Source: Pedobacter terrae
GTDB taxonomy: Bacteria > Bacteroidota > Bacteroidia > Sphingobacteriales > Sphingobacteriaceae
DNA: 64,000 bases
Direction: 5' to 3'
NCBI RefSeq assembly: GCF_036946585.1
Contig: NZ_JAQIIV010000013.1
Location: 27,492-91,491, forward strand
Shown here: positions 42,315 to 59,290 of the stretch, in pieces
Layout of the letters: each line of letters opens with the position of its first letter
How positions within the stretch are numbered: the stretch's first letter is position 1
The notes under the pieces: model-generated
What the model was told of the DNA's origin: nothing
Database searches by the model: none
The model's input: the letters and a program-made list of their open reading frames with translations, nothing else
Program-made: the position numbers and the translations under genes

Positions 42315-44687
42315 TGAGGGGAACTCCCCGCCTGATTTAGGAGGGGCGGGGGTGGTAAAAGGATTAATTTTCTATTCCAGTTCTTTCCCTTGAAGAAACA
42401 ATTTATCAGTAATGGGGTAATTTTTTTGCACTCGCTATAATACGGTTATTGTTCCGCCAATAAATCCGTCATTCCCGCGCATGCGGGAACCTTAATGCAA
42501 ACGCTATTTTCTTTTCCCGGGCTCAGTCTTGCCTCGGTTAGCCACCGAAGGGCTTTTACTTTTTCCTTGATGAAAAAGTAACAAACCTGAGCGAAGCGAA
42601 AGCATGCCTACCATTGAAAACAACAACAAACAAGGCATAACTGAAAGGCTTGCATCGTTCCTTGTAAAAAGCTACGGAAATCTTTATTGCGGCAGCATCG
42701 AGGCTCTTACCTTTGCTTGTCCCATCGCAATCGCTTTGATCCTGCCTTGGGCTGTGGGGGTATGAAGGGGACTGCAAAGATTTCCTTGCTTTTTCCGGCG
42801 GAAATCTGCCAGGCCGGTAGCAGGGTGCAGATAGCATGGTGCTTATAGCGGGATGTTCAGAGGTAGTTTCTAATATGGCGTTGTTCTACCACCAAATCCG
42901 TCATTGCGAGAAGGCTTTTTCAGCCGACGAAGCAATCTTTAAACCCAAGGCTTGCAGCGTTTTTTATGTGATCATGTTGTTTTTATCGGTATAAAAGATT
43001 GCTGCGCAATTCCTTGTAAAAAGCTACGGAAATCTTTATTGCGGCAGCATCGAGGCTCTTACCTTTGCTTGTCCCATCGCAATCGCTTTGATCCTGCCTT
43101 GGGCTGTGGGGTTATGAGGGTAAGTGCAAAGATTTCCGTGCTTTTTCCGGCGGAAATCTGCCAGGCCGGTAGCAGGGTGCAGATAGCATGGTGCTTATAG
43201 CGGGATGTTCAGAGGTAGTTTCTAATATGGCGTTGTTCTACCACCAAATCCGTCATTGCGAGAAGGCTTTTTCAGCCGACGAAGCAATCTTTAAACCCAA
43301 GGCTTGCAGCGTTTTTTATGTGATCATGTTGTTTTTATCGGTATAAAAGATTGCTGAGAAATTCCTTGTAAAAAGCTACGGAAATCTTTATTGCGGCAGC
43401 ATCGAGGATCTTACCTTTGCTTGTCCCATCGCAATCGCTTTGATCCTGCCTTGGGCTATGGGGTAATGAGGGGGAGTGCAAAGATTTCCGTGCTTTTTCC
43501 GGCGGAAATCTGCGAGGCCGGTAGCATGGTGCAGATAGCGTGGAGCTTATAGCGGGATGTTCAGAGATAGTTTCTAATATGGCGTGGTTCTACCACCAAA
43601 TCCGTCATTGCGAGAAGGCTTTTTCAGCCGACGAAGCAATCTTTATAGCGAGGATCATTAGCGTGAAAGATTGCCAGCCTGTTGCCGGCAGGCTTCGTCG
43701 TTCCTCCTCGCAATGACGACTTTTTTTAGATAGTATGTAAATGGCAGCGAAGGATCTTTTAATTTCTGTTATTTCAAAAAAAATCCGTCTCAACCGCAGT
43801 GCCCGCCTGTGCGGACAGGCCCGCCCGTACAGGCGGGGAGAGATCTTTTAATTAGTTTATTAGCTGCAATTTTCTCCCTCAGCTTGGGCTTGCCTCGGCT
43901 ACCGATTAAAAATCGGTACAGGTCAACCGCCACCGAAGGGCTTTTACTTTTTCCTTGATGAAAAAGTAACAAAAAATCAAGGCTTGCATCATTCCTTGTA
44001 AAAAGCTACGGAAATCTTAATTGCGGCAGCATCGAGGCTCTTACCTTTGCTTGTCCCGACGCGCTCGCTTTGATCCTGCCTTGGGCTGTGGGGGTATGAA
44101 GGGGAGTGCAAAGATTTCCGTGCTTTTTCCGGCGGAAATCTGCGAGGCCGGATAGCAGGGTGCAGATAGCGTGGAGCATATAAGAGGCTAAGGCGATCGC
44201 TATAAGACGGTCGTCATCCGATGGCTATCGGATCCCGCGCATGCGGGAACCTTAATGCAAACGCTATTTTCTTTTCCCGGGCTCAGTCTTGCCTCGGTTA
44301 GCCACCGAAGGGCTTTTACTTTTTCCTTGATGAAAAAGTAACAAACCTGAGCGAAGCGAAAGCATGCCTACCATTGAAAACAACAACAAACAAAGCATAA
44401 CTGAAAGGCTTGCATCGTTCCTTGTAAAAAGCTACGGAAATCTTAATTGCGGCAGCATCGAGGCTCTTACCTTCGCTTGTCCCATCGCAATCGCTTTGAT
44501 CCTGCCTTGGGCTGTGGGGGGTATGAGGGGTAGTGCAAAGATTTCCGTGCTTTTTCCGGCGGAAATCTGCGAGGCCGGATAGCAGGGTGCAGATAGCATG
44601 GAGCATATTGCAGGCTAAGGCGATCGCTATAAGACGGTCGTCATCCGATGGCTATCGGATCCCGCGCAGGTGGGAACCTTAATGCGT
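42315..44687 (+). repeat. Left mosaic repeat array: 5 copies of a long structured element plus CGTC-type REPs
   Basis: Copies at ~42495-42840, 42946-43192, 43298-43545, 43880-44178, 44245-44605, sharing AAAAAGCTACGGAAATCTT...AAAGATTTCCGTGCTTTTTCCGGCGGAAATCTGC..AGGCCGG.AGCAGGGTGCAGATAGC; REPs CGTCATTCCCGCGCATGCGGGAA and CGTCATTGCGAG...GCAATC in between. Confidence 0.93.
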
Positions 44688-45065
44688 AGCTCAGACGTTG
44701 CGGTCGATAGTTCAGACGTTGCAGTCAGTAGTTCAGACGTTGCGGTTGACAGTTCAGACGTTGCGGTTGACAGTTCAGAGGTTGCGGTCGATAGTTCAGA
44801 CGTTGCGGTCGGTAGTTCAGAGGTTGCGGTCGGTAGTTCAGAGGTTGCGGTCGATAGTTCAGACGTTACGGTCGATAGTTCAGACGTTGCGGTCGTTAGT
44901 TCAGACGTTGCAGTCGATAGTTCAGACGTTGCGGTCGAAAGTTCAGATGTTGCGGTCGACAGTTCAGGCGTTGCAGTCGGTAGTTCAGACGTTGCGGTCG
45001 ATAGTTCAGACGTCGCGGTCGATAGTTCAGACGTTTCGGTCGACAGTTCAGACGTTGCAGATGGT
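44688..45065. repeat. 21-bp tandem repeat x18, plus 1-2 degenerate units to ~45100
   Basis: Consensus AGTTCAGACGTTGCGGTCGAT counted unit by unit; no spacers. Confidence 0.95.
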
Positions 45066-45219
45066 AGTTTAGCGGTATTAGGAGATAGTTGAGGAGATGC
45101 AATGGGCCATTTTAGCGCTAAGCACTGCCTGAGAGAGAAATAGCCACCCGTTTGGCGCTTGTTAAATGGAAATAGGGAAATAAATTAGGGATGATTTTTT
45201 TTAGGGTATTATTGGTTGG

Positions 45220-56933: not shown

Positions 56934-56964
56934 AGGGGGTGTTTGTTTGCTGTATCACTAATAC

Positions 56965-59290
56965 GGTCGTCATTGCGAGGCACGAAGCAATCTTAATGCG
57001 CTCGCTATTCTTCCCCTAGCTCGGGCTTACCTCGGCTCACCGCCGCCGAGGGGCTTTTACCTTTTTCTTGATAAAAAGGTAACCAAAAATCAAGGCTTGC
57101 ATCGTTTTTTATGTGATCATGTTGTTTTTATTGGTGTAAAAGATTGCTACGCAATTCCTTGTAAAAAGCTACGGAAATCTTTATTGCGGCAGCATCAAGG
57201 CTCTTACCCTAGCTTTATTCCACCGCTCCCGCTTTGATCCTGCCTTGGGTTGTGGGGTAATGAGGGGGAACTGCAAAGATTTCCGTGCTTTTTCCGGCGG
57301 AAATCTGCGAGGCCAGATAGCAGGGTGCAGATAGCGTGGAGCATAAACATTATGCGTGGATCGATTCCTTTGGAACTATGAGGGGAACTCCCCTCCTGAT
57401 TTAGGAGGGGTGGGGGTGGTTATGAAGAGAATTCTCTTTTAGTCCTTTCCCTTTCAGGGGAAAGGTGCCGATAGGCGGATAGGGGTTTAAGGCGCTCGCT
57501 ATTCTTCCCCTAGCTCGGGCTTGCCTCGGCTCACCGCCGCCGAGGGACTCTTACCTTTTTCTTGATAAAAAGGTAACCAAAAATCAAGGCTTGGATCTGA
57601 TGTCGGATAAATTCGTCAAAGCTTTGAGGTCGTCAGCACAAGCCCCGATGAAGGATCGGGGAGGGCGTGCTGCCTCTGGGCAGTGATAAGTTGAAAGGAG
57701 GTGCAAAAGCTTTAACGTTTTCTCCTTCCATCATATCCTAGGCCGGTAGTAGGGTGCGGATAGCATGATGGCTGGTGATAGTTTCTAATATGGTTGTCGT
57801 TCTTCAATCAATAAATCCGTCATTCCCGCGCATGCGGGAATCTTAAAGCGGTTGCTATGCTTTGCCCTAGGCACTGTCTTGCCTCGGTTAGCCACCGAGG
57901 GGCTCTTACCTTTTTCTTGATAAAAAGGTAACCAAAAATCAAGGCTTGCATCGTTTTTTATGTGATCATGTTGTTTTTATTGGTATAAAAGATTGCTACG
58001 CAATTCCTTGTAAAAAGCTACGGAAATCTTTATGGCGGCAGCATCAAGGCTCTTACCCTAGCTTTATTCCACCGCTCCCGCTTTGATCCTGCCTTGGGTT
58101 GTGGGGTAATGAGGGGGAACTGCAAAGATTTCCGTGCTTTTTCTGGCGGAAATCTGCGAGGCCAGATAGCAGGGTGCAGATAGCGTGGTGCATAAATAGC
58201 ATTTATGTATTGATTCTATAAAACTACGAGGGGAACTCCCCTCCTGATTTAGGAGGGGTGGGGGTGGTTATGAAGAGAATTCTCTTTTAGTCCTTTCCCT
58301 TTCAGGGGAAAGGTGCCGATAGGCGGATAGGGGTTTAAGGCGCTCGATATTCTTCCCCTAGCTCGGGCTTGCCTCGGTTAGCCACCGAAGGGCTCTTACC
58401 TTTTTCTTGATAAAAAGGTAACCAAAAATCAAGGCTTGCATCCTTCCTTGTAAAAAGCTACGGAAATCTTTATTGCGGCAGTATCAAGGCTCTTACCCTA
58501 GCTTTATTCCACCGCTCCCGCTTTGATCCTGCCTTGGGTTGTGGGGTAATGAGGGGGAACTGCAAAGATTTCCGTGCTTTTTCCGGCGGAAATCTGCGAG
58601 GCCGGTAGCAGGGTGCAGATCGCATGGTGTATTAGGATAGTTTCTAATAGGGCGTTGTTTCACCGATAAATCCGTCATCTCGACCGCAGTGGAGAGATCT
58701 TTGAACTTTTCATAAACAGAGCCCGTCATTGCCGCGCATGCGGGAATCTTAAAGCGGTTGCTATGCTTTGCCCTAGGCACTGTCTTGCCCCGGTTAGCCA
58801 CGGAAGGGCTCTTTCTTTTCTCTTGATAGAAAAGAAACAAACCTGAGCGAAGCGAAAGCATGCCTACCATTGAAAACAACAACAAACAAGGCATAACTGA
58901 AAGGCTTGCATCGTTTTTTATGTGATCATGTTGTTTTTATTGGTATAAAAGATTGCTACGCAATTCCTTTTAAAAAGCTACGGAAATCTTTGTTGCGGCA
59001 GCATCGAGGCTCTTAGCCCTTGCTTTGTTCCACCGCGCTCGCCTTGACCCTGCCTTGGCCTGTGGGGTTATGAGGAGGGGTGCAAATATTTCCGTGCTTT
59101 TTCCGGCGGAAATCTGCGAGGCCGGTAGCAGGGTGCAGATAGCGTGGGGTAGACAGCGTGGTGCATAAATAGCATTTATGTATTGATTCTATAAAACTAC
59201 GAGGGGAACTCCCCTCCTAATTTAGGAGGGGCAGGGGGTGGTTATGGAGAGTATTATAAAGATCCTTTGCTTCGCTACTATTGAAAGCTC
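56965..59290 (+). repeat. Right mosaic repeat array: 5 copies of the long element plus REPs, same orientation as the left array
   Basis: Copies at ~57000-57344, 57490-57770 (variant core), 57845-58192, 58340-58630, 58750-59150; CTCCCCTCCT..TTTAGGAGGGG palindromes at ~57390, 58237, 59209. Confidence 0.93.

Follow-up and report, generated by a model that had tools for sequence, protein, structure and literature searches.

Two intergenic arrays in a 64,000-nt stretch of Pedobacter DNA (assembly GCF_036946585.1; contig C13:27492-91491 in our numbering), which we call the window, contain ten co-oriented copies of a large repeat. We think it likely that these copies are the array form of a mobile element family of the Bacteroidia, previously undescribed, modular, non-coding and non-autonomous, that targets the loops of repetitive extragenic palindromic (REP) hairpins. 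Members of the family are insertion-polymorphic, share a target and ends, include recent copies, and are under selection for base pairing in a conserved segment that we term the head. An earlier note on this DNA had described the ten copies as a structured RNA or mobile element; absent from it were the modularity of the element (at least three body types), the class-wide presence of the head in the Bacteroidia, and the syntenic hotspot at which the arrays stand.

The genome comprises 5.19 Mb at 39% G+C in an assembly that is 92% complete. In a repeat census of the window, the intergenic stretches 42300-45100 and 56950-59350 are packed with co-oriented repeats, and BLAST with hand-cut modules resolves these into ten units of 240-400 nt, all on the + strand and in two arrays, as the earlier note had it. 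Nine of the ten units carry a 180-nt body (CORE, body type A), with five copies in array 1 (42669-42845, 43021-43197, 43373-43549, 44003-44180 and 44429-44607) and four in array 2 (57166-57345, 58015-58194, 58455-58627 and 58975-59147). One further unit has an unrelated body (ALTCORE, type B). The head, of ~95 nt, is found in eight of the ten units (covariance-model matches at 42524, 43885, 44284, 57022, 57516, 57874, 58364 and 58780), and the two hairpins first noticed in this DNA, CCTCGG/CCGARG and TTACYTTTT-CTTGAT-AAAARGTAA, are both present in all eight. Some units have insert A (61 nt), insert B (56 nt) or both between head and body, and G-box modules and GTCA-type REP hairpins stand between the units.

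Array 1 starts with a G-box module (GAGGGGAACTCCCC..GGAGGGGCGGGGGTGG) at 42304-42356 on the + strand; further G-box copies lie at 57368-57420, 58222-58268 and 59195-59242, and all five copies in the genome are on the + strand. A GTCA-type REP hairpin (CCGTCATTCCCGCGCATGCGGGAAC, 42466-42492, + strand) directly precedes unit 1, and most units have a similar REP before or after them (e.g., 42897-42937, 56965-56995 and 57817-57843). Module BLAST, together with the head model where a head is present, delimits unit 1 (42497-42845; head, insert B at 42595-42650, CORE and tail), unit 3 (43312-43549; headless, insert A and CORE), unit 4 (43880-44180; head with an extra P2 insertion, and CORE), unit 8 (57854-58194; head, insert A and CORE) and unit 10 (58750-59150; diverged head, insert B, insert A and CORE). 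Unit 2 (42960-43197), also headless, consists of insert A (42960-43020) and CORE and lies within a 352-nt tandem repeat, 98% identical to the next copy, that is made by three array 1 units; this identity indicates that part of the array amplification is recent. Unit 5 (44257-44607; head, insert B and CORE) is a near-duplicate of unit 1, with 99% identity over 288 nt. In array 2, unit 6 (57000-57345; head, insert A at 57105-57165, CORE and tail) served as the reference copy. Unit 7 (57494-57770) joins a head and the shared tail to the type B body (57593-57740), which is a long hairpin too and is conserved at 91-96% in relatives G005 and G011 and at 76-87% in G001 and G003. Unit 9 (58342-58630) is minimal, with head, CORE and tail in 290 nt, and heads the alignment A1 described below. 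A protein-coding repeat was rejected: no open reading frame (ORF) is conserved among the copies, and the indels of 1-2 nt that separate them mean that no reading frame is maintained.

Dispersed copies elsewhere in the genome reveal the ends of the element and its target. Those with type A and type C bodies have in common both a leader (GGATAATTTAT..TATAAAAATCAAT..GACGTAACTGATTTC) and, on the other side, a trailer (..TCAATGGTAG). At one locus (G000:C15 ~80035-80468, where G000 is the present genome) the flanks are 434 nt apart and enclose an element that is not in five relatives; the same flanks adjoin each other in P. terrae, and in four other species 140-200 nt lie between them. The empty site is an intact REP in P. 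terrae and G013 (TCATTCTGAG-CATAG-TGAAGAATC; GTCATTCTGAG-CGCAG-CGAAGAATC), and at the filled site the element lies within the REP loop (GTTATTCTGAG|GGATAG...GGTAG|CGCAGCGAAGAG). A second filled/empty pair, a type C copy at G000:C13 98500-98833 versus an intact REP in G011, has the same junctions, and those common to the copies read CTGAG|GGATAA...GGTAG|CGYAG. The left end occurs ~32-40 times in the genome, always behind GTCAnnCTGAG, with the right end 60-440 nt further on; short headless forms (60-235 nt) and long head-bearing forms (306-438 nt) have the same ends and the same target. Three type C copies at unlinked loci are 98-99% identical, with sharp boundaries exactly at the element ends. 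The suggestion that this is a non-autonomous mobile element is thus borne out by two filled/empty pairs, shared ends and near-identical unlinked copies. The view of REPs as linkers is right in that they separate units, and too narrow in that the loops of GTCA REPs are the insertion target of the dispersed form.

The GTCA-headed REPs form a superfamily with several hundred hairpin matches genome-wide (stem variants GTCATTGCGAG.., GTCACCCTGAATTTATTTCAGGGT and GTCATCTCGAC...), equally frequent on both strands; no cognate gene for a REP-associated tyrosine transposase (RAYT) was identified. The window itself holds two short-form REP-loop inserts on the + strand. The first (GATAATTTTTGGTATAAAAATCAAT...TTGAATGGTAT, 21943-22002) lies behind GTCATGCTGAG and has no head or body; the second is at 23166-23225. 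Each is part of a ~130-nt direct repeat (hairpin CTTAGCGTCTCGCTAAG, GTCA REP and short insert; 21889-22010 and 23108-23235) that flanks a 276-aa gene (22242-23072), which we take from its N-terminal sequence to be an aldo/keto reductase. This site (21889-23235) is just downstream of an RND outer-membrane gene, where relatives carry full arrays.

The ends do not fit a classical MITE, a miniature transposable element with inverted repeats. Terminal inverted repeats are absent, GGATAATTTAT... and ...TCAATGGTAG not being inverted copies and a subterminal 7/8 match (TGACGTAA/TAACGTCA) being all that was found; at most 2 nt are duplicated, and a transposase ORF is enclosed by none of the copies that have these ends. 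The dinucleotide AG (CT on the other strand) is present at both junctions in most copies, against a chance of ~1/16 per site for a shared dinucleotide, and may represent either a duplication of 2 bp or a crossover core of 2 nt. Like non-autonomous IS200/IS605-type elements (PATE/REPIN-like, mobilized by Y1 HUH enzymes), which insert 3′ of a fixed short sequence without a duplication, the dispersed copies examined all lie behind CTGAG, or a near match to it, in a GTCA REP; with modules of the IS110/IS1111 type, the common features are the REP-loop target and the AG at both junctions in most copies.

These insertion data bear on whether the arrays are an inert mosaic of the BIME kind (bacterial interspersed mosaic elements), generated by recombination and slippage among REPs and old palindromic debris, with helices kept by intrastrand template switching, with no mobilization specific to a sequence and with no function. 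The modules do combine as a mosaic, some units are headless, identity between the 352-nt tandem copies is 98%, most of the long stems are either invariant or in decay, and no enzyme is associated. Against this stand the precise, orientation-specific insertion at the same REP-loop position at two loci and the near-identical copies at unlinked loci, and class-wide conservation of head sequence and pairing is not expected of neutral debris. We therefore regard an inert mosaic as very unlikely.

To describe the fold, we computed minimum-free-energy structures of full units (z scores of -1.9 to -3.0). In these structures the unit is closed by pairing between the head's 5′ end and the conserved 3′ tail; this tail, AGGCCGG.TAGCAGGGTGCAGATAGC, had been recognized as conserved, and its partner is new. 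Inside the closed fold lie the head hairpins P2 and P3, followed by the body as a ~45-bp interrupted hairpin. The head itself consists of the GC hairpin P2, a U-rich run and the 10-bp A/U hairpin P3, whose CUUGAU loop is complementary to an AUCAAG 6-7 nt downstream. In alignment A1, made of 27 BLAST-selected minimal Pedobacter units with a mean identity of 81%, 89% of the cells are paired, compared with 85.9% in shuffles (0 of 500 shuffles reach the observed value). P3 is 99.6% paired in A1 and shows change on both sides in six of its ten pairs, and the helix between the P3 loop and AUCAAG has one compensatory pair (AU 16, GC 11). Alignment A3 contains 111 distinct head sequences from several families; its counts for P2 and P3 lean towards the model, and so A1 is the fair test for P3. 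The loop/partner helix is outside the model; in A3 its pairing reaches 85%, two of its pairs are compensatory, and each of the five measures exceeds 500 of 500 shuffles. Among 134 distinct heads, loop and partner change jointly (CTTGAT/ATCAAG, CTTGGC/CCAAG, GGCAT/ATGCC and GGTG/CACC), and a further variant, CTTGAA/TTCAAG, occurs in other genera. The complementarity between the P3 loop and the downstream ATCAAG, pointed out in the earlier note, is therefore real and covaries. Full simultaneous pairing of this helix and P3 would be sterically tight, because there is no spacer before the loop strand and a 6-7-nt A-rich linker must cross a 10-bp stem; the two may coexist as a pseudoknot or may alternate.

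Behind the same head we find at least three unrelated long-hairpin bodies, each closed by GGCU...AGGCC(GG); the type C body follows the head in about eleven dispersed copies of this genome. Bodies from eight lineages, five other Bacteroidia genomes included, share no sequence, and all are closed hairpins between GGCU and AGGCC. Their fold z scores range from -3 to -6.4, with -1.5 for the short type C. The type A body is in 9 of 25 sampled Pedobacter genomes (this one counted) and in none of the 16 other families sampled; an exact-pattern scan for CORE returned Pedobacter records and one Sphingobacteriaceae metagenome-assembled genome only. CORE is thus restricted to a Pedobacter subclade. The head extends much further. 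Its covariance model R1 matches 113 of 201 Sphingobacteriaceae genomes (23 of 37 genera), the number of copies in a genome reaching 22 or more, and, at a cut-off of E <= 1e-6, 56 of 201 genomes across the Bacteroidia (38 of 121 genera); the covariance-model search that had been proposed thus finds the head throughout the class. Alignments and flanks give a uniform order: a variable P2, nnCUUUUnn-CUUGAU-nnAAAAGnn, CAAAAAAUCAAGGCU, a long hairpin and ..AAGGCCGG.

The head motif CTTGATnnAAAnGnnnCnAAAnATCAAGGC was also found on seven IMG/VR viral contigs; the CORE motif is absent from viral contigs. Three small head-bearing ones that we checked carry genes for a terminase large subunit and a major capsid protein, so copies also ride on tailed-phage or prophage DNA. 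A Microviridae origin, considered for the CTTG|ATA nick site in the P3 loop, was rejected, as these three of the seven head-bearing contigs are tailed-phage fragments.

No described family accounts for the element. With Rfam 15, nothing in the window reaches the gathering score, and the arrays, the dispersed copies and the copies from other families give only chance-level matches at E up to 10; a search of the literature by topic and by sequence words returned no description either. The term undescribed, which the earlier note had made conditional on such a scan, holds. Two inverted, sub-threshold matches to Flavo-1 RNA (RF01705; 35-40 bits, gathering score 42) flank a type C copy (G000:C15:113901-114700, 123-190(-) and 721-786(+)).

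Conservation of this kind could also mark a multi-copy family of functional structured small RNAs (sRNAs), in which each unit is a gene, or a processed 3′-untranslated-region product, that binds a protein or target, the tandem arrangement provides dosage, and mobility is incidental. Compensatory change in P2, P3 and the loop partner agrees with this, as does an architecture retained across families despite unrelated body sequences; in Pedobacter, moreover, the + strand folds better and has more G.U pairs. Of 32 loci, 23 (72%) lie downstream of a co-oriented gene and two between divergent genes. RNA-labelled sequencing runs contain contigs that are 85-99% alike, namely a synthetic-community metatranscriptome, runs of another organism, and a soil metatranscriptome that includes a 333-nt contig with a dispersed-type leader. 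These contigs, however, are of low depth, unstranded and from relatives and could be DNA carry-over, and RNA-labelled runs of the same species contain no element sequence. By eye, no Bacteroidetes-type promoter consensus was seen upstream of the units, and outside the syntenic hotspot no gene family stands consistently beside the copies. The stronger strand flips in other families, and the copies are insertion-polymorphic and sit within REP loops. On balance we consider an sRNA family unlikely.

The gene context raises a related question, whether the copies have been exapted as cis elements: terminators, mRNA-stabilizing 3′ structures or insulators, or homology cassettes for exchanging cargo at a defence island. 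P2 and the U-rich run resemble, from their predicted pairing, an intrinsic terminator (GCCUCGG..CCGAGGGGC UCUUACCUUUUUCUU), to which the fit is loose. The loci are biased to the 3′ ends of genes and avoid divergent promoters, and in several species a conserved locus has variable cargo enclosed by arrays. Yet termination does not need many tandem units, the terminator activity is a prediction from sequence, and cargo exchange is the expected consequence of direct repeats rather than a demonstrated function. Exaptation as the explanation of the element as a whole is in our view quite improbable. Within the mobile-element reading, copies are probably tolerated, or useful, as 3′-end structures, because most loci lie downstream of a co-oriented gene and the P2/U-run segment looks like an intrinsic terminator.

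Several results weigh against the mobile-element reading. The long stems show little compensatory change in A1, being mostly invariant or changed on one side, with several uncompensated mismatches. The long stem and the inner GGCAG..GAGGC/GCTTTGAT.CTGCC helix of the earlier note are 90-95% paired in the 27 Pedobacter copies, so they stand as pairings without gaining from covariation, and the second pseudoknot that it drew between a pyrimidine-rich loop and a G-rich tract shows no compensatory change and is dropped. Its description of the element as structured is accordingly strong for the head hairpins and their pseudoknot-like partner and weak for the long stems. In Pedobacter the + strand is the more stable, with G.T at 173 and A.C at 40; this asymmetry was counted on a structure obtained from the + strand, and in four other families it is reversed, the - strand folding better there. 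The array units, moreover, are not split-REP insertions, and mobility is seen directly for the dispersed relatives only.

The search for a mobilizing enzyme also tells against this interpretation: none was identified among the families searched. No autonomous copy is present in the genome, and none of the copies bounded by these ends has an ORF; pairs of a left and a right end at a distance of 1.3-1.9 kb, considered as a possible autonomous parent, proved to be chance matches inside ordinary genes. The IS110 DEDD transposase (PF01548, PF02371) was not matched in this genome, whose assembly is 92% complete, with positive controls, and an IS110/bridge-RNA derivative was rejected on this ground. 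TnpB (PF07282) is likewise absent, controls again being positive, and without it and without a HEARO or IS605-orfB match in Rfam a TnpB/IscB omega-RNA element was set aside as well. An IS91 rolling-circle element was considered; the Y2 gene (PF04986) is absent from 16 element-rich genomes in a search that had no positive control, since no control genome matched either. The single reverse transcriptase (RT) of the genome is in an unrelated context (G000:C4:393272-393928). This protein of 428 aa has an RVT_1 domain and a weak maturase-domain match, adjoins a PLD-nuclease/SNF2 helicase gene, and is possibly a defence-type RT. A retroelement (retron or group II intron) was rejected, as the lone RT lies elsewhere with no intron RNA there, and no copy has a group II match in Rfam.

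HUH-type enzymes of the Y1 class are present as four Y1_Tnp (IS200/RAYT-type) genes, which count against the proposal in that they are flanked by other REP and hairpin classes. Across 201 genomes, 67 have both head and Y1, 46 the head only, 23 Y1 only and 65 neither, an odds ratio of 4.1 (p 4e-6) without phylogenetic correction. Of the trans-acting gene families that the earlier note had suggested, Y1 co-occurs statistically with the head, but 46 genomes have heads without a Y1 gene and the lone RT is unrelated. There is no replication-strand bias by GC skew, itself only a proxy for replication direction (18 of 32 loci match the local sign; REPs, 280 of 545). HUH proteins of the pC194/phiX174/IS91 type nick at CTTG|ATA, and ISDra2 has TTGAT as its target. 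By likeness to both, we presume the P3 loop to be a candidate nick site, contrary to which the measured element ends are ~100 nt from P3.

How might such an element move? A full unit is a conserved head plus a lineage-specific long hairpin body closed by GGCU...AGGCC(GG). The dispersed form, with leader and trailer, integrates in one orientation into the apical loop of a GTCA REP hairpin, right after CTGAG, without terminal inverted repeats and with at most AG duplicated. We propose that mobilization depends on an enzyme supplied in trans that recognizes a single-stranded fold; this could be a nuclease of the HUH type or a site-specific recombinase whose crossover spans 2 nt. A bolder version takes the head-body-AGGCCGG unit to be the cis nucleic-acid component, as single-stranded DNA or RNA, of an unrecognized Bacteroidia transposition or recombination system that targets REP loops by structure or by a guide, with the enzyme encoded elsewhere and outside the families tested. 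The loop/partner helix and the variable hairpin would then have recognition roles, by analogy with bridge RNAs, omega RNAs or the origin hairpins of HUH proteins. We offer this version tentatively and hold it to be distinctly improbable.

The arrays, in the mobile-element reading, would arise secondarily. Array units lack leader and trailer and follow complete REPs or G-boxes, and are therefore not independent REP-loop insertions. In six relatives, arrays stand at one syntenic region (an RND efflux operon, NhaA, a flavodoxin-like gene, PorP/SprF with a giant protein of the type IX secretion system, YrdC and a GltS-like gene), where the number and type of units differ between species; array orientation is constant relative to this region, regardless of the direction of neighbouring genes. 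Because the arrays lack ends and vary in number and composition at a syntenic hotspot, we infer that they result from local tandem duplication and from unequal recombination among units and REPs. REPs, G-boxes, heads, inserts A and B, and bodies A and B are mixed, and vary between species at the same sites, as in BIMEs, whose described forms are exceeded here in array unit size and fold. An integrase between the arrays was considered and rejected: the gene of ~390 aa that recurs there encodes NhaA, and the one of 176 aa a flavodoxin-like protein. Draft contigs of relatives often end inside arrays, and they delimit an entire P. terrae contig of 14.8 kb, which makes the arrays a systematic cause of assembly breaks. 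In a long-read look at array variation, nanopore runs with the same species label do not contain the region.

Outside the element, the cargo between the arrays (45220-56933) consists, in order, of a 247-aa orphan gene, HsdR, an HNH protein, HsdM, HsdS, a 92-aa ORF, a PIN_8 protein and a 439-aa orphan gene, so that the arrays flank a type I restriction-modification (R-M) island; R-M genes lie between arrays both here and in P. terrae. The homology of co-oriented arrays would favour the gain, loss and exchange of genes between them, here the type I R-M island. Neither orphan gene has a Pfam match. The 247-aa gene (45220-45963, - strand) adjoins arrays at three other Pedobacter loci with 76-94% identity. 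The 439-aa gene (55614-56933) lies directly upstream of array 2, and orthologues (82-92%) occupy the same position in P. terrae and at three other loci. Right after array 1, downstream of the 247-aa gene, some 18-20 tandem 21-nt units (AGTTCAGACGTTGCGGTCGAT) occupy 44680-45090, where all 17 genome matches of the motif fall. At the far end, an IS4-family transposase gene (Tnp_DNA_bind and DDE_Tnp_1; 59379-60857) abuts array 2; such a transposase was not found beside arrays in other genomes. The statement that no transposase, RT or nuclease gene belongs to the arrays survives, since the abutting IS4-type gene does not travel with them elsewhere.

These results have several implications. A repeat family that is common across the Bacteroidia and absent from Rfam is described here for the first time, with a definition that consists of a head model, ends and a target site. 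It provides a clean natural case of insertion into a REP hairpin loop without any known REP-targeting transposase, which turns the search for the enzyme into a concrete problem. The arrays break assemblies and mark a recombination-prone hotspot with species-variable defence cargo, and are thus relevant to annotation and to defence-island turnover. If the fold acts as RNA, this would be a large, class-wide structured RNA with a covariation-supported pseudoknot.

Several known systems resemble the element in part. REP, BIME and REPIN systems are associated with RAYT transposases of the Y1 HUH type (PMC2817692, PMC3333891, PMC3116915). Like them, our element is extragenic, hairpin-based and found in mosaic arrays, with Y1 genes in the genome and a statistical co-occurrence of head and Y1. 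In contrast to their palindromes of 20-40 nt or REP doublets, the units here are multi-helix structures of 240-440 nt; GTCA REPs serve as the insertion target and are not the element itself, REPs of other classes border the Y1 genes, and there is no strand bias. Insertion sequences that target REPs include IS1397/ISKpn1, ISPa11, ISPpu9/10, ISPsy8 and ISRm19/22 (PMC1525189), and the specific insertion within REP palindromes is shared with our element. Those elements are autonomous and carry transposase genes, whereas the present element lacks both an ORF and inverted repeats and duplicates no more than 2 nt. REP-targeting insertion sequences of the IS3 type make duplications of 3-4 bp.

The BOX elements of Streptococcus pneumoniae are modular, MITE-like and intergenic, with end modules, a variable internal module and stable predicted folds. 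They have no known transposase and are not known to be specific for REP loops or to have a covariation-supported pseudoknot-type partner. The likeness lies in modularity, predicted fold, intergenic position and lack of a known transposase; there is no sequence relation. Tandem sRNA arrays such as NsiR1 of Anabaena and LhrC of Listeria have a promoter for each repeat and demonstrated transcripts. They resemble our arrays in having co-oriented tandem structured units with a terminator-like hairpin, and differ in those promoters and transcripts.

The closest described case is the ssr9 module of Pseudomonas putida KT2440, which is propagated into REPs by ISPpu9, an element of the IS110 family with a DEDD transposase (PMC12288879). 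Both are multi-copy, non-coding, modular and sRNA-like in structure, both insert into REPs, and both spread selfishly with an enzyme acting in trans, as we infer for the element described here. The present element has no IS110-family gene and no sequence or Rfam relation to ssr9; it is distinguished by its class-wide distribution, its larger size, its tandem arrays and a fold that is supported by covariation.

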